This document shows positions 3,474 to 24,598 of a DNA stretch of 64,000 nucleotides, in pieces (position 1 is the first letter of the stretch; every line of letters starts with the position of its first letter). The notes under the pieces are model-generated. The model was not told the DNA's origin. It made no database searches and saw nothing but the letters and a program-made list of their open reading frames with translations. A program made the translations under genes and the position numbers. This DNA is from Deltaproteobacteria bacterium (GTDB lineage Bacteria > Desulfobacterota > Binatia > UBA12015). The stretch is from assembly GCA_029262355.1 (NCBI GenBank), contig JAJCZO010000416.1, positions 74,973 to 138,972 of the forward strand, given 5' to 3'.

Positions 3474-4120
3474 ACCCATCGACGTCGCCGCGCCGGTCCC
3501 GTCTTCTGACCGCGCCGAACGTCATCTCGCTCAGCCGGGTGGCGATCACGCCGCTCTTGATCTGGCTCCTGTTGTACCCTGGGCGCTCGGCATCCGCTCT
3601 CGCCGCGCTGGCCTTCTTCATCGCGTGTCTGAGTGACTGGCTCGATGGCTACCTGGCGCGTAGATCCGGCCAGGTCACGAACCTCGGCACGTTCCTCGAT
3701 CCGCTTGCCGACAAGATCTTGATCCTGAGTGCCCTGATCATGCTGTGCGCCCTGTCGAGGGAGCCGCGTGTTCCGGCGTGGATCGTCGCCGTGATCGCGT
3801 CGCGAGAGGTGGCCGTCACGGGCCTGCGTGCGATCGCGCGGGACGAGGGGATCGTCTTGGGAGCCGAGACGCTCGGCAAGGCCAAGATGACCTTCGAGAT
3901 CGTTGCCGTCTTTCCGCTGCTGGTGCACTACCAGTACTGGCTGATCGACTTTCACGCAGCGGGAATCGTGTTTCTCTGGGTCGCCCTCGCACTCGCTCTG
4001 TGGTCGGGCGTGGCCTATCACTGGCGTCTCGCGCAGGCGCTGCGAGCCCGGGACAACGGCGCCTTGCGTGCCGCCATCGATGGCGGTACGGTTTTGCCCG
4101 GGCACGTGAGTGATAGCTAG
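3470..4120 (+). CDS. pgsA: CDP-diacylglycerol--glycerol-3-phosphate 3-phosphatidyltransferase
   Basis: CDP-alcohol phosphatidyltransferase signature (DWLDGYLARR ... GTFLDPLADK) and multiple TM segments. 4-nt overlap with the upstream CDS. Confidence 0.85.
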   Translation: MNPSTSPRRSRLLTAPNVISLSRVAITPLLIWLLLYPGRSASALAALAFFIACLSDWLDGYLARRSGQVTNLGTFLDPLADKILILSALIMLCALSREPRVPAWIVAVIASREVAVTGLRAIARDEGIVLGAETLGKAKMTFEIVAVFPLLVHYQYWLIDFHAAGIVFLWVALALALWSGVAYHWRLAQALRARDNGALRAAIDGGTVLPGHVSDS

Positions 4121-4189
4121 GTCCCGCGCAAGAGGGGGTCGCGAACCCCGCCAGGCCCGGAAGGGAGCAACGGTACCGAATTTTCCTCT

Positions 4190-6085
4190 GTGCCGCGGGG
4201 GTGCCTAGCTATCGCTGACGTGCTCGATCCGTCGAAGCCCTCACCCAAGGGGGCAGCCGACTTCTACGAAGTCCTCGCGCGACGAGCGCGTCCGCAGACC
4301 TTTTCGGAGGTCATTGGACAGGAGCATGTCACCCGAACGCTGGTGAACGCGATCTCCTCGGGCCGCCTCGCGCACGCCTTCGTCTTCAGCGGAATGCGCG
4401 GGGTCGGCAAGACGACGACGGCCCGAATTCTCGCGAAGGCGCTGAACTGCGAAAAGGGTCCCACTCCGGAGCCGTGCAACACCTGCCCGAGCTGCGTCGA
4501 GATCGCCGAGGGGCGCTCGATGGACGTTCTCGAAGTCGACGCGGCCTCTCAGACCGGGATCGATGCGACGCGCGAGTTGCTCGAGACGGTGAAGTACCAA
4601 CCTGCCTCCGCGCGTTATCGTATCTACATCATCGATGAGGCTCACGGGCTGTCGAAGCAAGCCGTCGATGCGTTCCTGAAAACTCTCGAAGAGCCGCCCG
4701 CACACGCGAAGTTCATCCTCGCGACGACGGCGCCGCAGAAACTGACCGCGACGATCCTGTCGCGCTGCCAACGATTCGATTTTCGCGCCGTCCCGGGTGA
4801 CACTATCGTCGAGACTCTCGTCGCGATGGTTCGCGGCGAGGGGATGGAGGCGGACCCCGACGCGCTCGCGGCAATCGCGCGCGAATCGGGCGGCAGCCTG
4901 CGCGACGCGACGTCGTTGCTCGACCAGGTGCTCGCGTTCTCCAACGGCCGCATCGACGCGGGCGCGGTTGGGCTTGCGCTCGGACTCCCCGATGTCGCCG
5001 CCGTTCGCGGAGTCATGGACGCGATCGTGGCACACGACCCAGCCCGTGCGCTGGAGGTAGTGGGGCGCGTGGTGGGGCAGGGCACCGACCTCGCTCGCTT
5101 CGCTCAAGACCTGCTGCAGCGAATCCGGAACCTGACCGTTCTCGTCGTCGCGGGGCCGAGCGCCCTTGCGGACTTGACTCGACACGAGATCGAGGAGCTC
5201 AGCCAGGCCCGCGATGGGCTCGCCACCGAGGACCTCCAGCGCTGGTTTCGGATTCTGATGGGCGGCTCCGAGGAGGTGGCGCGCTCGTCCAAGCCACGCC
5301 TCGTTCTCGAGATGGCGGTCCTTCGGATGGCGACGATGACCCCGTTGGTGCCACTGGACCAATTGGTCGCGCGGCTGGAGTCATTGGAACGAGGCTCCCG
5401 AGGGGGCTCGGGGCCCGGTGGCCAACCCCGACCCGGGACCCGCCCGGCCCCGACCCGGGCCGCCGCTTCCCCCGGACCCAGAGCGACGGAGCCCGAGGCT
5501 TCTCCTACCCGGTCCGCCCGGCCCGCGAGCGATCCGGCATCGGCGCCACCGAGGTCTCCGTCGCTCGAGAGAGTGCCCGAGGCGCGGCCGACCGCCGTGC
5601 CTGCTGCGACGTCCGCCCATCCGACGGCGGCCGAACCGCCCTGTACGCCGAAAGCGGCTCCCACGACCGCATCGGCCGCGTTGAAGCCCCTGGAGGATCC
5701 GGTCGTCCAGAAGCGCTGGCAAACCATCGTCGGGAACCTCCAGACGCAGCAGACGGCACGCTTCTTCCGTCTGGCATACAGCAGGGTCGTGGGTTTCGGT
5801 GACGGAGTGATCAAGATCTCCGTGACCGGCAAGAACGCTCTGCCGGAGCTCGAGAAGCCCGACACCAGGCGGATGATCGAGGAAGCCCTGGCCAACGAAT
5901 ACGGCGAGAGTCTGCGCTTCGAAGCCGTGTCGGCCGACGGGGCCACTCCGGGAGGCGCCGCCCGTGCCGAGACGGTCAGCCTGGAGCGTCAGGGGCGAGA
6001 AGATCCGCTGGTTCGGGCTAGTGTCGAGGTACTCCAGGGCCGCGTGGAGGGCGTTGTTGCGCGGAGCCGGCGCGAAGGTCCGTAG
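4190..6085 (+). CDS. dnaX: DNA polymerase III subunit gamma/tau
   Basis: Walker A (GMRGVGKTTTARILAKALNC), zinc-binding CxxC motifs (CNTCPSCVEI), sensor/box motifs (YIIDEAHGLS, SRCQRF). Pro/Ala/Ser-rich linker and tau-type C-terminal domain. GTG start at 4190; exact start is uncertain. Confidence 0.9.
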   Translation: MPRGCLAIADVLDPSKPSPKGAADFYEVLARRARPQTFSEVIGQEHVTRTLVNAISSGRLAHAFVFSGMRGVGKTTTARILAKALNCEKGPTPEPCNTCPSCVEIAEGRSMDVLEVDAASQTGIDATRELLETVKYQPASARYRIYIIDEAHGLSKQAVDAFLKTLEEPPAHAKFILATTAPQKLTATILSRCQRFDFRAVPGDTIVETLVAMVRGEGMEADPDALAAIARESGGSLRDATSLLDQVLAFSNGRIDAGAVGLALGLPDVAAVRGVMDAIVAHDPARALEVVGRVVGQGTDLARFAQDLLQRIRNLTVLVVAGPSALADLTRHEIEELSQARDGLATEDLQRWFRILMGGSEEVARSSKPRLVLEMAVLRMATMTPLVPLDQLVARLESLERGSRGGSGPGGQPRPGTRPAPTRAAASPGPRATEPEASPTRSARPASDPASAPPRSPSLERVPEARPTAVPAATSAHPTAAEPPCTPKAAPTTASAALKPLEDPVVQKRWQTIVGNLQTQQTARFFRLAYSRVVGFGDGVIKISVTGKNALPELEKPDTRRMIEEALANEYGESLRFEAVSADGATPGGAARAETVSLERQGREDPLVRASVEVLQGRVEGVVARSRREGP

Positions 6086-9920: not shown

Positions 9921-12900
9921 ATGTCCCGCTTCTTCGTTGATCGCCCGATCGTGGCGATGGTCATCTCGATCCTGATGACCCTCGTGGGGGTGGTGTCGAT
10001 GGCCGGCCTGCCCATCTCGCAGTTCCCGAACATCGCGCCGCCCGAGATCCAGCTGTTGGCGACTTACGTCGGCGCGGACGCGATCACGGTCGAAGATGCC
10101 GTATCGACGCCGATCGAGCAGCAGATGAGCGGTGTGGACGGCATGATCTACATGTACTCCACCAACGCGAGCAACGGGCAGGGCACCCTTCGCGTCGACT
10201 TCGAGGTCGGCAGTGACGCAAACATCGACCAGGTGCTGACCCAGATGCGGTATCAGCAGGCGGAGTCCCAGCTGCCCACGGCCGTAAAGGACTTCGGCGT
10301 CACGATCAAAAAATCGACGTCGAGCCCGCTCGCTCTTTTCTCGATCTACTCCCCGAACGGCACGTACGACGCGAAGTTTCTCTCGAACTACGCCTACATC
10401 AACATCAACGATCCGATGACCCGAGTCCCGGGCATCGGTCAGGTCTCGATCTTCGGCGCAGGTCAGTATGCGATGCGCTTCTGGGTGAAGCCCGATGTGC
10501 TCGCCGAGATGGGGATCACGGTCACCGACCTGATCGACGCGCTGCAGACGCAGAACACGGTCAACCCCGCGGGGCAGGTCGGAGCCGAACCCGTCCCACC
10601 GGGGCAAGAGTTTACGTACACCGTCAAAGCGCAGGGGCGTCTGAAGACGCCCGAGGAGTTCGGCGACGTCGTCGTGCGGGCCAACCCGGATGGCTCTCTG
10701 GTGACGATGAAGGACGTCGCACGGATCGAGCTCGGCGCACAGAACTACGCCGTCATTGGTCGTCTGAATGCCAAGCCCGCTGCAATCGTCGCGATCTACC
10801 AAGACCCGGGTTCGAACGCGATCGATACGATGAACGAAGCCACCGCCTTGATGGAGGAGATGAAGGCGCGTTTCCCGTCGGATCTCGAGTACACGATCTC
10901 CTTGGATACGACGCAGGCGGTGCGCGAGGGCATGAAGGAGATCGTCCAGACGCTCTTCGAAGCGCTCGCGCTCGTGATTCTCGTCGTCTTCGTGTTCCTG
11001 CAGGGCTGGCGGGCCACTTTGATCCCGTTGCTGGCCGTTCCCGTCGCACTTGTCGGCACGTTCGCGATCTTCCCGCTGCTTGGGTTCTCGATCAACACAC
11101 TCTCGCTGTTCGGACTGGTCCTCGCGATCGGGCTGGTCGTCGACGACGCGATCGTCGTGGTCGAAGCGGTCGAGCTTCATATCGAGAAGGGGCTGTCGGC
11201 GCGCGACGCTACCCTGAAGGCGATGGAAGAGGTGACCGGCCCGATCGTGGCAACGTCTTTGATCCTCGCCGCCGTATTCGTGCCGACCGCGTTCATCCCC
11301 GGCATCACGGGTCGGCTGTATCAGCAGTTCGCGGTGACGATCGCGGTGTCGGTGCTGATCTCGACCTTCAATGCACTGACGTTGAGCCCGGCCTTGTCGG
11401 CAATGCTGCTTCGTCCCAGGCAAGAGATGACGGGAATCCTGGGACGCTTCTTTGGGTCGTTCAATACGTGGTTCGCCCGCGCGACCGACGGCTACGTGCG
11501 CTGGTCGCACACCCTGATTCGCAAGGCCGGCCTTTCGATGCTGTTCCTCGCGGTCATCGGCCTCGCCGGCGGCTTCCTGGGTTCGCGCCTTCCTACCGGG
11601 TTCGTGCCCGAGGAAGATCAGGGCTACCTCTTTGCGAACGTACAGCTTCCGGATGCTGCATCGATGCAGCGCAGTGATGCCGTCTGTCGTCGCGTCGAGA
11701 AGATCCTTGCGGATACGCCGGGCGTCGCGAGCTACAATACGGTCGTGGGCTTCAGCCTGCTGAGTCAGGTGAACACGACGTACTCGGGTTTCTTCTTCAT
11801 CACCCTCGAGCCTTGGGACGAGCGAGATCCGAAGGGACTCGACGCCAAGACGATCATGCGGGACCTGAACGTGCGCCTCGCCAAGGAAGTGCCCGAAGCG
11901 CAGGCCATGTCGTTCTCGCCCCCGGCCATCCCGGGCATCGGAACCTCGGGGGGCGTGACGTTCGTTCTCGAGGACACGTCCGGCGGTACCGTCGAGATGC
12001 TGGCGGAGAACACGAACACGTTCCTTGCGGCGCTGCGTAAACGACCCGAGTTCGCCCACGTCGGCACGACGTTCATTCCGGACACTCCGCAGATCTTCGC
12101 TGACGTCGATCGCGACAAGGTGCTCAAGCAGGGAGTCGCTCTCTCGGACGTCTATCAGACCCTGCAGGCGTTCATGGGCGGCGTGTTCGTGAACTACTTC
12201 AACCGGTTTGGGCGGACGTGGCAGGTCTACGTTCAGGCCGAAGGTGAGTACCGAACCAAGGCGTCTGACGTCGATCTGTTCTACGTGCGGAACTCCAAGA
12301 ACGAGATCGTACCGCTCGAGACGTTCGTCACGATGAAGAAGACCTACGGGCCTGAGTTTACGTTGCGCTTCAACGAGCACCGTTCCGCCCAGATCAACGG
12401 CACCCTTTGGCCGTGGATCAGCTCGGGGCAGGGCATGGAGATCTTCGAAGAGGTCTTCGCGCAGACCATGCCGCCCACGATGGGCTTCGACTACATGGGC
12501 ATGTCGTACCAGGAGAAGGAGGCGTCCGAGGGCGTATCGCCGGCCTTCATCTTTGGCTTGTCGTTACTCGCGGTGTTCCTGATCCTGGCTGCGCTGTACG
12601 AAAGCTGGGCGCTTCCCTTCAGTGTGCTGCTGGCGACGCCCATCGCGGTCTTCGGGGCGTTTCTCGCGCTGGCGGCACGAATGCTCGTGAACGACATCTA
12701 CGCGCAGATCGGCCTGGTGATGCTGGTAGGGCTCGCGGCAAAGAACGCGATCCTGATCGTCGAGTTCGCACGCGGCAAGCTCGACGAAGGGGAGACCGTG
12801 GTCAATGCCGCGCTCGACGGAGCGCGGCTGCGGTTGCGGCCCATCATGATGACAGCTTTCGCGTTCATTCTCGGCGTCTTGCCGCTGGTGATCGCGACGG

Positions 12901-14564: not shown

Positions 14565-14638
14565 GCCCCCGTAGCTCAGTTGGATAGAGCGCAGGATTCC
14601 TAATCCTGAGGCCGCGTGTTCGAGCCACGCCGGGGGCA
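14565..14638 (+). tRNA. tRNA-Arg (anticodon CCT)
   Basis: Cloverleaf read directly: acceptor GCCCCCG/CGGGGGC, D-arm GCTC-AGTTGGATA-GAGC, anticodon arm CAGGA-TTCCTAA-TCCTG (anticodon CCT), T-arm GCGTG-TTCGAGC-CACGC, discriminator A. No encoded CCA. Coordinates +/-2 nt. Confidence 0.85.
14596..14638 (+). repeat. attL: island-proximal copy of the 43-nt tRNA-Arg 3'-end direct repeat
   Basis: Bases ATTCCTAATCCTGAGGCCGC and CGGGGGCA are identical to the copy at 24556..24598; the T-stem differs (CGTG/CACG versus CTGG/CCAG). Confidence 0.75.
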
Positions 14639-14654: not shown

Positions 14655-15737
14655 TTACGTTTTTGACGGCTTCGGCATCGGAACGATTTGCCCCGTTTTT
14701 GCCCCGTTTCCATCGGTGACGCGCCCGGCGGCGCGCCGGAGGTCGTCTTCGTTGATGACGTTGTATCGCTCGAAGACCGTGCGCGTGCGCCAGCCGCCTA
14801 TCTTCATGATGACTGCTTCGCTCTCGCCGCTGCGGCGGTAATTGCGAGCCATGGTGCGCCGAAAATCGTGCGGTCGTCGACCCGGCACACCGGCGCGCTC
14901 ACAGGCGCGTCGCCAGACCTTGTAGGGGAAGAACTCGACGGGCTTGCCGTCCCGGTGGAAGACTCGCGAAATGATCGCGTTCTTCTGACGCTCGACCGCG
15001 CTGGTGCGGTCGCGCCACCGCTTGATGACGTCGAGCGCTTCGACAGGCAGGTAGACGAGCCTGCCGTCCTTGTTCTTGGTCGTCCCGATCCCGAGTCGGA
15101 TCGTCCCGGCTTCGAGGTCGACCTGTCGCCACTCAAGGCGAAGTAGCTCGCTGCGCCGGAACCCTACCCAATACGCCACCGTAACGAGGGGCCGAAGGAA
15201 GTTGTCGGGAAGCTCGGCGAGCAAGCTATCGAACTCCGCGCGCTCGAAGAACACCTCGCGGGCGTTGTTGACGCTGATGGAAGGGAAGGGAGGTACGCGA
15301 AAGAGTTTTCCCGCTTTGAAGCCCACGCGGAACGCCCTTCGGAGACAGGCCAACTCGCGTTGCAACGTGGCGGGCTTCGCCTTCTCTGCAAGGCGTTGCT
15401 CAACGTAGTGCGTGAGCCGCGTCATGGTCACGGCCAAAGCCAGGTCGCTGCCAAAGACGGGTTTTAGGTGTGCCCAGCGCTGGATGACGTCCCTCTCGTT
15501 GAAACCGTTCACGCGGTAGTTGCGGCGGAGGTCCTCGATCAGCTCGGAGACGCGGGTCTTCGCAGCGTTCGGCTCGTAGAGCCCCTGGCGCATTTCCACT
15601 AGCCGCTTGTCACGCATCTCCTTTGCCTCCTTGCGCGACTTTGCGTTGGTGGGTTCCTCCCGACGCTTTCCGTTTCCCAGCGGAAGGCGAATGTACCACA
15701 CGGTGCCTCGGAGCCTCACTCCGTCGCGGCGCTTCAT
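14655..15737 (-). CDS. int: site-specific tyrosine integrase (phage/P4-type)
   Basis: 360 aa. N-terminal SAM-like/core-binding region. Catalytic residues in HDFRRTMARNYRRSG and the Tyr nucleophile region IGGWRTRTVFERYN. Lies 16 nt from the tRNA-Arg 3' end. Confidence 0.9.
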   Translation of the reverse strand: MKRRDGVRLRGTVWYIRLPLGNGKRREEPTNAKSRKEAKEMRDKRLVEMRQGLYEPNAAKTRVSELIEDLRRNYRVNGFNERDVIQRWAHLKPVFGSDLALAVTMTRLTHYVEQRLAEKAKPATLQRELACLRRAFRVGFKAGKLFRVPPFPSISVNNAREVFFERAEFDSLLAELPDNFLRPLVTVAYWVGFRRSELLRLEWRQVDLEAGTIRLGIGTTKNKDGRLVYLPVEALDVIKRWRDRTSAVERQKNAIISRVFHRDGKPVEFFPYKVWRRACERAGVPGRRPHDFRRTMARNYRRSGESEAVIMKIGGWRTRTVFERYNVINEDDLRRAAGRVTDGNGAKTGQIVPMPKPSKT

Positions 15738-17209: not shown

Positions 17210-18388
17210 TCATGACTGCGACCCATCCCTGCTCTTGCGCCGCTCCAGGATCTCGACGGGGCGGCCTCCCGTGGGCTCGACGCGCACGCGCCACTCGGGC
17301 GAGCTGGTGAGCACCTGGATCGCTTTGTTCAGGTTCGCGGCCGAGATCCGGTCACCGAAGAGGGTCTCACGGATCCCTGAGCGGGACATCTCCCCGCCGG
17401 GCGGGATGGCCTCGGCGATCCGGTCGGCGTCGCGGTTGCCGGACCGACCGGAGAACACGGTGCGCACGCTGGCCTCGCAGTAGTCCCAGACCGCCAGCGC
17501 GGACTCCAGGTGGGGGACGTCGATCTCGGCCCGGCCGTCGAGCAGCGCATACAGGAGCGAGAGGCGAAGCACGTGGGCCTCGGCTCGGGCGAGCAGGTCT
17601 CCGATCAGCCCTGGGCGGTCGGCGGACAGCTCCGCGTACATGCCGCGCCACAGGTGGTCGGCGGCTGGCGTGCGCCGCACAACTCCCAGCAACTTGGCAG
17701 CGTCCAGGGCCTCGCGGGTGCGCCGGCCCAATTCGTCACGCTCGTGCTGGGGCACCACCCCAGGCGAGGGGAGCAGCTTGCCCCGCGTCACGAGCACCAC
17801 GAGGAAGCGGTTTCCCAGTCCGTTGGCCGCGTCGGTGTCCGACAGGTACCTCTCCAGGTCGGCGAGGGTCGAGTGCGCGATTACGGCGATGTGAGCACCA
17901 GTCGCGCGGGTCGGCGAGTTCTTCGTCAGGGTGCCTAGGCTCTCATCCCCATCCCAGACGGCGCGCAGTACGGGCGACAACGTGTTGCCGTCCCGTTGCA
18001 TTGCCTTCAGAGCCCCGGCAAATTCCGATTCGCTCACCAGTAGGCGCTTGTCGTCCACGCCGGGGTCTACGACTTCCATTTCGCCCTTCTTGTTCGGTCG
18101 CTCGATCTTGTCGCGAACGGAATGGATCAACCCCTCGCCGGACGAGAGGCCCGACGACACCAGTAGCGTGGGGTCGGCATCCTGCACGGTGCGCAGCGCG
18201 ACTTTCTTGCTGTCCCCCTTCCGTGCTCGCGCCGACTTGCCGACCAACAGCAGCGACTCATTCGTGTAGTGGCGTGTTTCCCCGACGCACACGTGCGCTG
18301 TTCGCCCCACGGCCGCTCCGAACGCGACCAAGAACTGCAGCAGGATCGCTGCCGGTGCTGCCTCGGTGTACGGCAGGTAGGCTCGCAC
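17210..18388 (-). CDS. DUF3987/YfjI-like protein (primase-associated family typical of P4-like integrative elements)
   Basis: 392 aa. N-terminal hydrophobic segment followed by a GKS-containing region (LLVGKSARARKGDSKK). The size and this region resemble DUF3987. Gene context (integrase + AlpA) matches CP4-57/P4-like islands. Assignment is by pattern memory, not a database search. Confidence 0.4.
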   Translation of the reverse strand: MRAYLPYTEAAPAAILLQFLVAFGAAVGRTAHVCVGETRHYTNESLLLVGKSARARKGDSKKVALRTVQDADPTLLVSSGLSSGEGLIHSVRDKIERPNKKGEMEVVDPGVDDKRLLVSESEFAGALKAMQRDGNTLSPVLRAVWDGDESLGTLTKNSPTRATGAHIAVIAHSTLADLERYLSDTDAANGLGNRFLVVLVTRGKLLPSPGVVPQHERDELGRRTREALDAAKLLGVVRRTPAADHLWRGMYAELSADRPGLIGDLLARAEAHVLRLSLLYALLDGRAEIDVPHLESALAVWDYCEASVRTVFSGRSGNRDADRIAEAIPPGGEMSRSGIRETLFGDRISAANLNKAIQVLTSSPEWRVRVEPTGGRPVEILERRKSRDGSQS

Positions 18389-18392
18389 TACA

Positions 18393-19226
18393 TCACCGGC
18401 GAGTCCTCGCAGTGCCTGAGTCGCCTGCCGCGAGGCCTATCTCGCCAAGCCACCATGGCGACGTCGCGCCCGTCTTCTCGTCGTAGTCGGCCATGTCGCA
18501 CGCGATCCAAGAGCCGCTCTTGGACGTTACCTCGCAGTCGCGGAAGACGATCTGCTTCCCAGCGGACAGACGGGTCAACGCAGCCCGCATCTCCGCGGGA
18601 TAGTATAGCCAGTACTTTCCGTACTCGTCGGGTGCTTCGAGTCCATCCTTCGGATCGAGCATTGTAGGAATCAGCACGACAGCGATGCACTCGTTCCCGC
18701 CATACTTGGATTGCACGTTGCTTTCGCGCAGGCAGGGCGTCACCTCATCGACACGACCGGCCCCGTAGAGCGACAGCTCACGTGCATCTCCGGGCTGCCC
18801 CTTGCCGGACACGTCATCCATCAACTCGCGCACCTGCTCGCCTACCGAGGTCTCCTCCTCCGGCAGCACCGTGCCGAAGATCGCCTTCTTGAAGGGCGCC
18901 AGCGAGTCGCGCCGCCAGCGCGCCTTTCGTTCCTTGACGGAGTCGAGTTGCGGAGAGCCATCGCGTTGAAGATCGGTGAGCGCCGCCTCCGCCTCCCTGA
19001 TGGCCCGCTCCTCATCCAAGATCCGCGAATCCCATTCGTCGATCGCCTTCCACGTGATCCCTGCGGGCGGCGCACGATCGACGGTCGGCGTTGGCGTCGG
19101 CAGAGCGCGAACCGGCTCACCTCGGGAGCATCCACACACGAGGGCTGTCGTGAGAACGCACGTGACACTGAGCCTTGCGGTGAAATGTGCCATTCTAGTG
19201 TAGCGTTTCCTAAATAGCTGTAACAT
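18393..19226 (-). CDS. hypothetical lipoprotein (island cargo)
   Basis: Signal peptide with lipobox-like LVCGCS. 4-nt spacing to the downstream DUF3987-like gene suggests co-transcription. Start could instead be the internal Met (about 19193). Confidence 0.5.
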   Translation of the reverse strand: MLQLFRKRYTRMAHFTARLSVTCVLTTALVCGCSRGEPVRALPTPTPTVDRAPPAGITWKAIDEWDSRILDEERAIREAEAALTDLQRDGSPQLDSVKERKARWRRDSLAPFKKAIFGTVLPEEETSVGEQVRELMDDVSGKGQPGDARELSLYGAGRVDEVTPCLRESNVQSKYGGNECIAVVLIPTMLDPKDGLEAPDEYGKYWLYYPAEMRAALTRLSAGKQIVFRDCEVTSKSGSWIACDMADYDEKTGATSPWWLGEIGLAAGDSGTARTRR

Positions 19227-19254: not shown

Positions 19255-19887
19255 ATGGGGTACAAGGCGGATGTGCGGCTGGTGAAGAAGGATCGAAAGG
19301 TCTTGGAGTCCTGGCTTCGAGCGCCGACGATTTCCCAGGAGATGGCGCTGCGAGCAAAGATCCTCATCGCCAGCGCCGATGGCGAAGCCATTCGGCCCCT
19401 GGCGACGCGACTGGGCATCTCACCCACCACGGTGTGCCTGTGGCGGCGTCGCTACGAGAGCGAAGGGCTGGCGGGCCTTGGTACGCGACACCGTAGCGGG
19501 CGCAAGAAAAGCAAGGTGACACCGGCCAAGGAGCGAGCGGTCGTCGCCGCCACGATGAAGGAGCCCAAAGACACGACCCACTGGAGCACGCGTCGTCTGG
19601 GCAAGAAGGTTGGGCTCAGCAACGCCACCGTGTACCGGATCTGGCGCAAGTACGGGCTCCAGCCGCACCGGGTCCAGACCTTCAAGTTCAGCACCGATCC
19701 CGACTTCGACGCCAAGCTGGCCGATGTCATCGGGATCTACCTCGACCCTCCAGAGCGCGCCCTGGTCCTGTGTGTGGACGAGAAATCTCAGATCCAAGCG
19801 CTTGATCGCACCCAGCCCCTGCTGCCGATGCGGCCAGGGCTTCCGGCTCGGATGACGCACGACCACGAGCGCGTACGATCGACGTGA
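19255..19887 (+). mobile_element. truncated IS630-family transposase gene (N-terminal HTH region and start of the DDE domain only)
   Basis: N-terminal HTH/winged-helix region (ISPTTVCLWRRRYESEGLAGL ... LSNATVYRIWRKYGL) and first catalytic Asp region (LVLCVDEKSQIQAL), then premature termination at 210 aa; the family is normally about 340-370 aa. Confidence 0.7.
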
Positions 19888-19958: not shown

Positions 19959-21230
19959 TCACCCGAGGACCTCGGCCGCGCCCTCGTTGAGGAGCCATGG
20001 AGCGCCGGTCATCTCGAACGCACCCATTGGCCATAGCGCTGCGCGCTGCCAGCCCTGCTCTTCGGTGAAGCGGTTCCAGAAGGTGCGTATCGAGTCCAGG
20101 GCGGCTCCTCGGATCCACTCGGGTGGAACACGCCAGGCCACGACGGCAAGGCACTCAGGGCGCTTCTTGAGCTGCTTCTCCAATCCGAGCCGGGTGAGGA
20201 CCTTGGCGAATGCAGTCTCGGCGTCGCTGTCAAAGGTCTGCTGATGGAACGCAAAAAGGGAGCCTGGTTCCCATGCGCCCTTCTCAAAGATGTCGCAAGG
20301 TCGCGCGTGAAGCTCGATCTCACCCGGTCGGTCTCTCGATAGGATGAAGTCGACTCCCTCGGGCCTCTGCGCGCCATCGTTCCAGCCGGTGGAGGCGGCC
20401 AGCCGGTAGCCCTCGGCATCCAGTAGAGGAATGGGATCGGCCATGAGCGCGATGCCGGTCTTCAGCAGCTCCTCGACCTCGCTCAAGTTTCCTTGAAGGG
20501 CACCGACGAGCATCAGCACATCCTTGTCTCGCGCATCGGTGGGTAGCTCCCACGTCCACAAGTACCGGGTAAGAAACGAGGCATGCGGGGCCATCCCCAG
20601 CCCGCCCAGCATGGCGGAGGCCAGAGTTGGGACGTAGCTCGGGTCTTTCTTGAACTTGACCTCAACCGGAAGCACTTCCTGGCGTTCAACCAGCCAGTCC
20701 GGCTCGCCTGGCTTTCGATCTACTGTGCGTGGAAGCCACCCCTCACCGGTCAGCTTGTCCAGAGCCCACCATTCGGCCTGCGCGGAATCCAAGTCGGCCG
20801 TGAGAGCAAGCGGGCTCTTGCCTGCGACGGAGCGCTCCTCCAGCGGGACGGCAACCGGCCAGTCGTCGCCTGCGGCTGCGATGAGACGCTCGAACATCGC
20901 GCGGTGTTCGGGAAACAGCTCCTTCGGCCGCTTGAAGGGAAAGACAACCTCCACGAGTTCTCGAACGTGTTCTACAAGTAGGGCTTCTGCCCCGAAGACA
21001 CCGACGATCTGCTGAAGGTGCTCGACAAATGGGCGAAGCGCTGGTGCGGCCGACACGTCCAGCACCCTGTCCTGCCAATCCGGCGGAAGCGTTCGGACGG
21101 GTATCACAGAGAGATAATACGTACTGTCACGGTAGCGATCCAGTATCGGCGCACCGTCTTCCGCTCCGCAGCGCTCGGTGCTCAGGTCGCCGCCGTCGCG
21201 GATCGCCTTCTTGATCCGAAAGACCCGCAC
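19959..21230 (-). CDS. hypothetical protein, 423 aa (island cargo, no recognisable domain)
   Basis: Long ORF with consistent coding bias, no signal peptide, no motifs I can assign. Co-directional with the upstream secreted 172-aa ORF. Confidence 0.5.
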   Translation of the reverse strand: MRVFRIKKAIRDGGDLSTERCGAEDGAPILDRYRDSTYYLSVIPVRTLPPDWQDRVLDVSAAPALRPFVEHLQQIVGVFGAEALLVEHVRELVEVVFPFKRPKELFPEHRAMFERLIAAAGDDWPVAVPLEERSVAGKSPLALTADLDSAQAEWWALDKLTGEGWLPRTVDRKPGEPDWLVERQEVLPVEVKFKKDPSYVPTLASAMLGGLGMAPHASFLTRYLWTWELPTDARDKDVLMLVGALQGNLSEVEELLKTGIALMADPIPLLDAEGYRLAASTGWNDGAQRPEGVDFILSRDRPGEIELHARPCDIFEKGAWEPGSLFAFHQQTFDSDAETAFAKVLTRLGLEKQLKKRPECLAVVAWRVPPEWIRGAALDSIRTFWNRFTEEQGWQRAALWPMGAFEMTGAPWLLNEGAAEVLG

Positions 21231-21424
21231 AAGGCCATGATGGAGATCGTGCGAGAGGGGGATGAGATTCGCGTCGCGCTTGGTGGGTATTACCGGGCTG
21301 GCGCGAGTTCACCGGACGCGTTGGTCGTCGGGTAGAGGTCGAGCCGGCGAGCCGGAGGTTGAAGAGGCTACCCAGTAGACCGCGTCGACGGGTGGAGGAG
21401 GTGCTGGGTGTCACCGTCTGCCAT

Positions 21425-21943
21425 TCAGTTTAGGGGGCATCGTTCGGTCGGAATGCTCGGGGGCGTCGCGTCCGTGCGGACGAGGCGGATGGTGCAGACG
21501 GTCTGGACGAAGTCGAAGCCACGCACCTCTGCCACCATCTTCCCGCTGATACCCTTCCGGTTCTGGGGGAACACTCGTCCGCGTCTCAGGACCATGGTCG
21601 AAGCTCCGGTCTTGGCGGAGCACGGCTGGAGCGTGCCCCCCGCCAGGTGGCTTCCCTTCGGTGCCTTCGTAGAGATGCCGCCGGCGAATGTGCCGCCGCC
21701 GAAGAAGCCCGATACATTCTCCGCGAACTCGCCGATCTGGGCGTCGGCAGCGAGTAGCAGTGGTTCCCGCGCAAGCTCGACCGGTACCCGGCGGCCGTCG
21801 GGCCAAAGGAACGTGCAGTTGAAGGGACCAGGGTCGCGTTGCTCCCACGTGCCCTCGAAGCTTCCTCCAAGGGCTGGTCTGGCGAGTAGTATCGATGGCA
21901 GTGCCAGAATGCAGAAAGCGAGAAATCTGTTTCGATTCGTCAT
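21425..21943 (-). CDS. hypothetical secreted protein, 172 aa (island cargo)
   Basis: Clear N-terminal signal peptide (MTNRNRFLAFCILALPSILLARPALG). Gly-rich mature region. No recognisable domain. Confidence 0.5.
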   Translation of the reverse strand: MTNRNRFLAFCILALPSILLARPALGGSFEGTWEQRDPGPFNCTFLWPDGRRVPVELAREPLLLAADAQIGEFAENVSGFFGGGTFAGGISTKAPKGSHLAGGTLQPCSAKTGASTMVLRRGRVFPQNRKGISGKMVAEVRGFDFVQTVCTIRLVRTDATPPSIPTERCPLN

Positions 21944-22021
21944 GGCGTTTTCCTCATTCTATTGGGGGAAGGTCGGTAGTAACCCCAGCCGTATCGCACT
22001 GCGACGCGCTGGGGCCTGTCG

Positions 22022-22270
22022 ATGAAGCCTGACACATGTTGCCGACTCGCGCTATCGGAGTTCTTCGAGCCAGGCGGTGGGACGCGCGCTCGCCGCTTCG
22101 GCGTTGCCCACTTCGGCCTCCGGGTCGAGGACGTCGATGCGTCGGTCACGGAACTTCGGGCGGGCGGCGTCCGCATCCTCGGGCCGACCGTTCGGGAGCC
22201 GTCGGGGCTCACCTGCGCCTACCTGGCTGCTCCCGACGGGGTCGTGATCGAGCTGACGCAGTACGAGTAG
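22022..22270 (+). pseudogene. VOC (glyoxalase/bleomycin-resistance) family gene fragment, C-terminal half only
   Basis: 82-aa ORF matching only the C-terminal beta-alpha-beta-beta-beta module of VOC proteins (VAHFGLRVEDVDASVTELRAGGVRILGP ... VVIELTQYE). No N-terminal module upstream. Confidence 0.45.
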
Positions 22271-23654: not shown

Positions 23655-24179
23655 ATGAAGTCGTTCCCTGCGCGATATCGGAAGACGATTGGCTCTCTGC
23701 TCATGGTGGCCGCATTTGTCGTGCAGTGGGTCTTGACGGAGTACGTCGAGCCCGCTGCCGAAGCGACGTTCAGCAATCCCGACACGTGCGGCGACACATC
23801 GTTGCAGACACAGAATCTGGAACTCCTCTTCCACGTCACTGGAGAACCCACGCATCTGCACGACGCCATTCGGACGCGGGCCCTCTTCTACTACGAGTTT
23901 CTCACATCGCCGGCTTTCGACGAGGCTACGGTAGACCATCGACTGGGGCCCGTCGCTGAGGCGATGACAGCCACGCCCGACACGTTCGAGGAGTACGCGA
24001 GGCTCAAGGTTTCCCTTGGGAAGCATGCCGGTCGACTCTGGGGGGACGAGTGGCGTCCTGGCGCGCAAGCCATCAAACGGCGTGGATTGTACCTCCGCGT
24101 TGCGATCTTCTTGGTGTCTCTACTGGGGCTCTTGCTCATCTGGAGTGGTGAGAACTTCGAAGGCCAGGGGAAGCAATGA
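23655..24179 (+). CDS. hypothetical membrane protein with N- and C-terminal TM helices (island cargo, lower-GC patch)
   Basis: ATG preceded by GGAGGAG. TM segments IGSLLMVAAFVVQWVL and LYLRVAIFLVSLLGLLLIW. Local GC is lower than the backbone. The overlapping minus-strand ORF 23319..24068 is rejected. Confidence 0.45.
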   Translation: MKSFPARYRKTIGSLLMVAAFVVQWVLTEYVEPAAEATFSNPDTCGDTSLQTQNLELLFHVTGEPTHLHDAIRTRALFYYEFLTSPAFDEATVDHRLGPVAEAMTATPDTFEEYARLKVSLGKHAGRLWGDEWRPGAQAIKRRGLYLRVAIFLVSLLGLLLIWSGENFEGQGKQ

Positions 24180-24555: not shown

Positions 24556-24598
24556 ATTCCTAATCCTGAGGCCGCTGGTTCGAGTCCAGCCGGGGGCA
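24556..24598 (+). repeat. attR: partial tRNA-Arg 3' end (distal copy of the 43-nt direct repeat)
   Basis: ATTCCTAATCCTGAGGCCGCTGGTTCGAGTCCAGCCGGGGGCA reproduces the anticodon-loop-to-3' end of tRNA-Arg(CCT) with compensatory T-stem changes. No 5' half of the tRNA (GCCCCCG acceptor strand) is present upstream. Confidence 0.75.

Follow-up and report, generated by a model that had tools for sequence, protein, structure and literature searches.

A predicted PD-(D/E)xK nuclease and a predicted exported protein encoded side by side in a tRNA-Arg island

Two genes in the distal part of the island

The window, i.e. the whole stretch of 64,000 nucleotides analysed here, contains a 10-kb island integrated at tRNA-Arg, with an integrase, a DUF3987 helicase and a 43-nt att repeat. 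Two neighbouring minus-strand genes of this island were studied. The features of the region are as follows.

14565..14638, plus strand: tRNA-Arg(CCT), the integration site (attL), recognized as a tRNA gene and by the direct repeat
14655..15737, minus strand: tyrosine integrase of the island (Pfam Phage_integrase, E = 1.6e-19)
17210..18388, minus strand: DUF3987 protein, helicase-type replication module of the island (Pfam DUF3987, E = 6e-13)
19255..19887, plus strand: IS630-type transposase fragment, HTH only, without the DDE domain (Pfam HTH_32, HTH_23, HTH_29, HTH_28)
19959..21107, minus strand: large gene in its most likely extent, GTG start at 21107, 382 aa
21108..21230, minus strand: 41 codons upstream of the family-consistent start, within the mechanically called 423-aa ORF; no homolog, pLDDT <50
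21231..21424, no strand: spacer between the ORFs, without recognizable promoter, terminator, structured RNA or conserved element
21425..21943, minus strand: gene of a 172-aa predicted exported protein (ORF, RBS, hydropathy, homolog P0003)
22022..22270, plus strand: VOC/glyoxalase gene fragment, N-terminally truncated (Pfam Glyoxalase model positions 59-121 of 121)
24556..24598, plus strand: attR, a repeat of the tRNA 3' half (43 nt, 88% identity, compensatory T-stem changes)

The att sites share a 43-nt direct repeat (14596-14638 and 24556-24598, 88%), and an RHH protein is also encoded between them. In tRNA-integrated mobile elements with variable defence cargo, the helicase function has been demonstrated for a PriCT-DUF3987 protein (PMC11724360). 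On its two sides the island borders on ordinary chromosomal genes, for HlyD/AcrB efflux and for a DUF1329 protein, respectively. An unclassified MAG encodes a protein 79% identical to this DUF1329 protein, 'Deltaproteobacteria' and Thermodesulfobacteriota MAGs encode proteins with 59-68% identity, and the DUF1329 gene is all that the closest reference MAG (L014) has in common with the window. From these matches the host is an uncultured diderm bacterium. The IS630-type fragment is convergent with the large gene and marks a rearrangement junction. A second junction is marked by the VOC fragment, located 78 nt upstream of the 172-aa gene. The GC3 of the two genes is 0.73-0.75, compared with 0.80-0.86 in the flanking host genes. 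Base composition and position support a foreign origin of both genes as cargo of the tRNA-integrated island, in its decayed distal part. The first-pass annotation had described them as accessory cargo at just such a location, between an IS630 remnant and a truncated VOC gene. The Pfam matches confirmed these neighbours, and the lower GC3 bore out the description as cargo.

Both ORFs were recovered on the minus strand where that annotation had placed them, 21425..21943 with 172 aa and 19959..21230 with 423 aa from a GTG. Since the sequence has a G+C content of about 65%, long chance ORFs are abundant, and the coding status was therefore put to the test; 78 ORFs of at least 50 aa overlap the 17-25 kb region. 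The codon-position GC is 0.70/0.46/0.73 for the large ORF and 0.62/0.55/0.75 for the 172-aa ORF. The large gene is real, because its codon-position GC is coding-like, about 40 homologs exist and the fold is predicted with confidence. For the 172-aa gene one relative is known (P0003, 84% identical). The comparison of the two gave a Nei-Gojobori dN/dS of 0.29 with 14/16/40 substitutions at codon positions 1/2/3, which establishes this gene as well. Both are thus real genes, beyond the chance ORFs of 65% GC DNA. To judge from the same substitution pattern, the 172-aa gene is under purifying selection. Out-of-phase frames yielded dN/dS values of 1.5-2.2, and the antisense frame sharing the wobble position yielded 0.36. 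Because of this low value an antisense ORF of 205 aa (21408..22025) was considered as the real gene; it was rejected, since its GC1 is below its GC2 and the encoded protein has a high content of R, S and P. The minus-strand ORF is preferred because it has an RBS and a signal-peptide-like N-terminus.

The start of the large gene had to be corrected. It is most likely 19959..21107 (minus strand) with a GTG start at 21107 and 382 aa, rather than a start at 21230, because homologs skip residues 1-41, pLDDT is low there, and the ATG of relatives aligns with this GTG. None of the homologs aligns with residues 1-41 of the 423-aa ORF; the relatives begin at about residue 45, and the AlphaFold2 model has a pLDDT <50 for residues 1-41. 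In one relative (L002) an in-frame stop lies within the stretch equivalent to the 41 upstream codons. In two further relatives (L030/L031, 41% identical) the ATG (MDLVRTLPQDW) matches the window GTG at 21107 ((M)IPVRTLPPDW) codon for codon, and L030 has a stop three codons upstream of that ATG. The segment 21108..21230 is probably a 5' untranslated leader. Codon-like GC periodicity runs on through 21108-21335, a residual oddity for the shorter start. No recognizable RBS precedes either candidate start. The gap between the two genes, given before as 195 nt, is 194 nt between the mechanically called ORFs, close to that value; it becomes 317 nt with the corrected start. We searched the 21100-21430 spacer for a hidden small gene or conserved element and found none. 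Its RNA structure was not significant (z = -0.18), and no promoter- or terminator-like site was found.

The 172-aa gene has a Shine-Dalgarno-like GAGGAA 6-7 nt before its ATG. By inspection and hydropathy, the N-terminus of the product has a basic n-region (MTNRNR), a hydrophobic stretch (CILALPSILLA, Kyte-Doolittle 2.5) and an A-L-G cleavage-type motif. The mature part contains 19 Gly and 4 Cys, and beta-strands are predicted; the sequence GFFGGGTFAGGISTKAPKG is present in the product of ORF 21425..21943 (minus strand). The pattern of a signal peptide followed by a Gly-rich mature region, as noted at first pass, is therefore present. The product is predicted to carry a Sec-type signal peptide and to be a disulfide-capable, beta-rich periplasmic or secreted protein. 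AlphaFold gave a pLDDT of 31 for it, with an alignment of two sequences only, and the PDB sequence-profile search returned no match.

Signature, predicted fold and family of the large protein

Scans with Pfam, NCBIfam, PADLOC and PHROGs did not match the 423-aa or the 172-aa protein. These profile checks with HMMER against Pfam and defence HMMs had been proposed at the outset, and they revealed that curated libraries recognize neither protein. The same libraries matched none of the 24 aligned members of the large protein's family. With PADLOC-DB 2.0 (5027 defence-protein HMMs) nothing significant was obtained, the best E of the family being 0.006 for a single unrelated match. A word-indexed homolog search of 5.8 billion proteins matched the 423-aa protein only to itself, and the profile version of this search was swamped and gave two proteins only. 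When 1.84 billion cluster representatives were scanned exhaustively with phmmer, 40 proteins passed E <= 1e-3, and 29 of these also passed E <= 1e-10. These relatives are 24-43% identical to the window protein, mostly 360-400 aa long, and either unnamed in their sources or labelled 'hypothetical protein'. A genome-contig scan of GTDB species representatives with the 423-aa protein gave no match, and tblastn found none in 72,556 plasmids or 50,697 phage records. Nor was there a relative of it in 2.9 million viral contigs.

An alignment of 24 family sequences was evaluated, with residue numbers following the 423-aa ORF. E153, L157, D178, W179, K194 and W366 are invariant. All 24 sequences have an acidic residue (E or D) at position 190, and 22 of them have K192. 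The family signature is thus E153...D178...(E/D)190-x-K192-x-K194, or as a pattern E...(P)D-W...[VI]-[ED]-x-K-x-K, and the window protein has kept all five catalytic-signature residues. The first-pass annotation had found no motif in this protein that it could place in any family. This was wrong, since a conserved PD-(D/E)xK nuclease signature is present. Its statement that the protein is cytoplasmic is in line with our analysis, in which no signal peptide was found.

The structure was predicted with AlphaFold2 from the 24-sequence alignment with high confidence (mean pLDDT 84.4, pTM 0.84). The model and, for the core, the alignment give three domains:

Residues about 45-135: N-terminal helical domain
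Residues about 140-260: central PD-(D/E)xK nuclease core
Residues about 265-423: C-terminal beta plus alpha/beta domain

In the model itself the helical domain spans residues about 52-131 and the C-terminal domain 267-423. The core elements are H140-162, E166-168, E179-182, E186-194, H197-213 and E223-228. D178 stands directly before strand 179-182, E190 and K192 lie within strand 186-194, and E153 lies within helix 140-162. In the canonical PD-(D/E)xK arrangement strand 2 opens with the Asp, strand 3 carries (D/E)xK and helix 1 often contributes a Glu (PMC3424549), and the family places its signature residues in the same way. The data thus indicate that the large protein is a predicted member of the PD-(D/E)xK (restriction-endonuclease-like) superfamily. 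The assignment is limited to the superfamily level, because Foldseek against PDB and BFVD (viral models) gave no significant whole-chain match and the PDB sequence-profile search with the nuclease family reached no solved nuclease, only designed helical-repeat noise. Within this very large and well-known superfamily, the proteins form a new, rare, unnamed and uncurated family.

The best structural match was CdiA-CT(1026b) (PDB 4G6V), with a sequence identity of 9%. This is an Mg2+-dependent enzyme with the active site E187/D214/D223/K242 (PMC9086364). Scores of further structural matches were XisH 6.4, EC869 CdiA-CT DNase 6.3, CdiA-CT E479 6.2, YaeQ 6.0, PaqCI 6.0, AF1548 5.8, I-Ssp6803I 5.7 (a 148-residue chain), PA4535 5.3, MspJI 5.1, Avs4 5.1, Shedu SduA 5.0, HindIII 5.0, HamA 4.9, McrC 4.9, Hjc 4.8 and VRR-NUC 4.5. 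The nuclease-fold protein could accordingly be read as a growth-arresting RNase/tRNase toxin like CdiA-CT(1026b), serving as an abortive-infection or addiction module. The low identity to 4G6V speaks against this. The fold does not discriminate the substrate, because DNases of the same fold (EC869 CdiA-CT and PaqCI) score only slightly lower. The known CdiA-CT nucleases with a PD-(D/E)XK fold (Burkholderia pseudomallei 1026b, 4G6V; E479, 5J4A; E. coli EC869/TA271, 4G6U) sit at the C-terminal tip of huge secreted filaments and are encoded next to a CdiI immunity gene. In the window protein, in contrast, the nuclease occupies the middle of a cytoplasmic 382-aa chain and is flanked by unrelated domains. 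Neither CdiA delivery domains nor a signal peptide were found, and across the loci there is no conserved neighbour that could be an immunity or antitoxin gene. We therefore consider the toxin reading unlikely.

We also considered that the copy in the window is a decaying, non-functional remnant like its truncated neighbours. It sits between the IS630 and VOC fragments, two positions that 22 of the 24 relatives conserve are changed in it (Q90R and A93V), and neither candidate start has a recognizable RBS. Against this, the reading frame runs uninterrupted, the alignment with the family extends over the full length to the C-terminal ...AAEVLG, the complete catalytic signature is retained, and the codon-position GC is coding-like throughout. 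On balance, decay of this copy appears quite improbable.

Genomic contexts of the two genes

The surroundings of the family were compared in 11 independent contexts (L002, L003, L004/5, L006/7, L008/9, L010, L011, L012, L013, L030 and L031). An all-against-all BLAST of the neighbour proteins revealed no gene common to any two contexts or to the window. Members of the family occur as stand-alone genes, and they move at the scale of a single gene, as L030 and L031 show. Between these two loci a segment of 1668 bp, comprising no more than the gene, is 95.5% identical; identity drops to 78-85% in the flanks, which are inverted in part. One of the two copies sits among rve transposase fragments. 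AcrB adjacency is common to L031 and the window, but with only 24% identity between the two AcrB proteins the idea of a shared hotspot was rejected.

Known or candidate defence genes adjoin the family member in six of the 11 contexts, and the other five are without any. PADLOC matches were obtained for 8 of the 20 neighbours scanned. The six contexts are:

L008/L009: hsdM and hsdS (type I R-M) before the gene, an RmrA/CapP-like M78 peptidase and DUF4411 after it
L003: HmaC-like ATPase, ThsB-like TIR and caspase
L006: AbiJ/PDC-M01A
L002: PDC-M54A, with an S8 peptidase with an AAA gene nearby
L004: PDC-S70/UPF0175
L013: SIR2 protein

In L008/L009 the family gene begins 10 nt past the end of hsdS, inside the type I R-M cluster.

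These contexts bear on a further reading, according to which the protein would be a selfish, free-standing homing-type endonuclease or an XisH-type nuclease for element maintenance (a recombination or excision helper), with no benefit for the host. The XisH and I-Ssp6803I structures are among the matches listed above. The absence of the family from the viral contigs, phage records and plasmids searched argues against this reading. There is no linkage to an integrase, intron or intein in the contexts and no fixed position relative to island core genes, and more than half of the contexts are defence-type neighbourhoods. Moreover, the protein has 382 aa and two extra conserved domains, compared with the short I-Ssp6803I chain. 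We regard a homing or maintenance nuclease as very unlikely.

The only relative of the 172-aa gene was found at the end of a 12.7-kb contig (L001, ERZ26858540, with a coverage label of 1.58x); it follows immediately after a TetR gene, and the surroundings look chromosomal. The DNA similarity to this locus (85%) is limited to window positions 21410-21914, from inside the predicted signal peptide to 15 nt past the stop codon. In L001 the frame can be followed upstream of the called start; this stretch still codes for a putative signal peptide (RVRTACILALASMALASPALGA), so that the pattern is conserved in the protein sequence, but it has no canonical start codon. A TetR remnant upstream of the window gene was not found, and JGI metagenomes and viral contigs yielded no further copies of the 172-aa gene.

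The first-pass annotation had put the two genes forward as its best candidate for an undescribed system, and had suggested that their co-occurrence in other genomes be checked. In such a two-gene system, with a role in defence, toxin-immunity or niche adaptation, the predicted exported and the cytoplasmic protein would act together. The genes are indeed adjacent and co-directional, their GC3 values are alike (0.73 and 0.75) and lower than those of the host, and the spacer has no terminator-like site. Also, the contig with the single other 172-aa gene ends only 50 bp downstream of it, before any neighbour on this side. As far as these data reach, the pair is absent as a conserved unit elsewhere. 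Relatives of the 172-aa protein were sought in the 11 nuclease-family contexts and found in none (tblastn best E 0.3-0.5). Likewise, no nuclease relative is encoded in the 10 kb upstream of the L001 copy, and the similarity between the two 172-aa loci stops shortly after the stop codon. The corrected gap has widened to 317 nt, and the truncated IS630 and VOC genes that bound both genes indicate separate rearrangement events. A toxin-immunity reading is unlikely in particular, since a predicted exported protein would be poorly placed to neutralize a cytoplasmic nuclease; the different compartments would make an immunity role implausible. The candidate system was not borne out, and a two-gene system is the least likely of the readings considered, with hardly any probability left to it. 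The 172-aa gene is an independent module that travels apart from the nuclease and is not its partner. The arrangement in the window is best read as a chance juxtaposition of unrelated cargo in a rearranged region.

Comparison with known systems and proposed role of the nuclease

Shedu (SduA) offers the closest analogy to the large protein, being a single-protein PD-(D/E)xK defence nuclease. In Shedu a conserved nuclease core is controlled by variable sensor domains within a single protein (bioRxiv 10.1101/2023.08.10.552793, 10.1101/2023.08.10.552762). The family does not belong to Shedu by the available models, as DUF4263 and the PADLOC Shedu models matched 0 of the 24 members. The nuclease domain is central in the window protein and C-terminal in Shedu, and the flanking domains have no detectable counterpart there. 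HamA of Hachiman, the Avs4 nuclease domain, McrC, MspJI and type II/IIS enzymes are also PD-(D/E)xK enzymes of defence or restriction. These enzymes have helicase, STAND NTPase, GTPase or modification-reader modules as partners or as fused domains. In contrast, the window family has none of these modules and no conserved partner gene. A likeness to PrrC-type latent nucleases, which are embedded in type I R-M loci, lies in the position of the L008/L009 gene, a case confined to a single lineage. PrrC differs in its nuclease domain and in having an ABC-ATPase-like N-domain, and a sequence relation to it was not detected.

Among the explanations weighed here, the best one is that the two are unrelated cargo genes and that the larger one encodes a stand-alone, metal-dependent PD-(D/E)xK nuclease acting as a single-gene defence effector. 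We consider this reading probable, with moderate confidence; the alternatives discussed above overlap with it in part. A defence-effector role is the most likely one because the family occurs solo, is mobile and is often found beside known defence genes. The idea of defence cargo, as first proposed, can thus be kept for the larger gene, whose family has a defence-type neighbourhood, and has to be given up for the pair.

With regard to the mechanism, the core with E153, D178 and E190-x-K192 would bind a divalent metal and cut phosphodiester bonds of DNA or RNA. The conserved helical domain at the N-terminus and the beta plus alpha/beta domain at the C-terminus may recognize the target or hold the nuclease inactive until it is triggered. 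The nuclease would then serve as a single-gene effector against phages or mobile elements. We tentatively propose a more specific version, which is possible but less than probable. Here, the family would be a previously undescribed single-gene anti-phage/anti-plasmid system, in which the novel N- and C-terminal domains of a PD-(D/E)xK nuclease sense infection and unleash cleavage. It would spread as a gene-sized mobile module among uncultured bacteria of soil and sediment, carried by their defence islands and satellite-like tRNA islands.

For the annotation of the window, the analysis provides a corrected start and a superfamily for one 'hypothetical protein', and it removes a proposed two-gene system. 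It also illustrates that a word-indexed search may call a protein an orphan where an exhaustive profile scan together with structure prediction places it. Should a role as defence nuclease be confirmed for the family, the list of single-gene immune effectors would grow by one, and the two accessory domains without detectable relatives could reveal a new mode of infection sensing.

Departures of the nuclease-fold protein from its relatives

In the alignment of 24 sequences, the window nuclease-fold protein was found to carry R and V in place of the Q and A shared by 22 of 24 relatives. These departures fall within codons 90-93 of the 423-aa ORF (window 20952-20963), in VQxLA, the best-conserved motif of the N-domain. 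They could reflect a changed specificity or incipient decay. The closest relatives (41-43% identity) have an additional C-terminal extension of about 100 aa, which the window protein and most family members lack.

Relatives with the C-terminal extension
8001-9425 of contig L002
7992-9452 of contigs L030 and L031

As a side observation, GC periodicity of codon type persists for about 230 nt 5' of the homology-supported nuclease start (window 21108-21335), with low GC where the coordinate mod 3 is 1. An ORF on the opposite strand mirrors this periodicity; a Pfam search with it gave no match.

21018..21335, plus strand, 105-aa ORF

Island ends and further cargo

The 3' half of tRNA-Arg is present in two att copies. 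Their T-stems differ in a compensatory manner (GCGTG...CACGC versus GCTGG...CCAGC), and therefore a valid T-arm is expected from either copy. Presumably, one copy is a replacement carried by the island and the other is the displaced native end. The small SRP RNA gene is an ordinary housekeeping gene and confirms the chromosomal context.

4115-4213, plus strand, bacterial small SRP RNA gene (75 bits)
14596-14638 and 24556-24598, tRNA-Arg 3'-half att copies
18393-19226, minus strand, 277-aa ORF flanked by the DUF3987 gene and the IS630 fragment
23655-24179, plus strand, 174-aa ORF near attR

Neither of the two ORFs matched a family. The 277-aa product has a lipoprotein-like N-terminus (...LTTALVCGCS) and is another putative exported cargo protein of the island. 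The 174-aa product, with hydrophobic segments at either end and a coding-like GC of 0.62/0.45/0.73, is probably a small membrane protein.

For the 172-aa gene, the sole homolog lies on contig L001. Its signal-peptide-coding stretch is kept in frame (9947-10003), immediately 3' of a TetR stop codon, and no ATG, GTG or TTG start was found 5' of the h-region. Since the contig name indicates 1.58x coverage, an assembly error or a genuine 5' truncation may account for the missing start.

Mobility and genomic company of the family

Contigs L030 and L031 derive from one metagenome. Their family gene segments are 95.5% identical and the flanks 78-85%. The 546 bp immediately 5' of the L030 segment (AcrB 3' end) are inverted relative to L031, and rve transposase fragments are also present in L030. 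This pattern suggests recent transfer or IS-mediated rearrangement.

Compared segments with the family gene
L030 7287-9480
L031 7279-9481

Type I R-M loci with a family member
L008 935-3389
L009 943-3397

On contigs L008 and L009, the family gene lies within a type I R-M gene cluster, where only 10 nt separate its start from the stop codon of hsdS. Behind it come a gene for an M78 peptidase of the RmrA-like type and a DUF4411 gene. Such embedding is reminiscent of latent nucleases, of which PrrC is an example.
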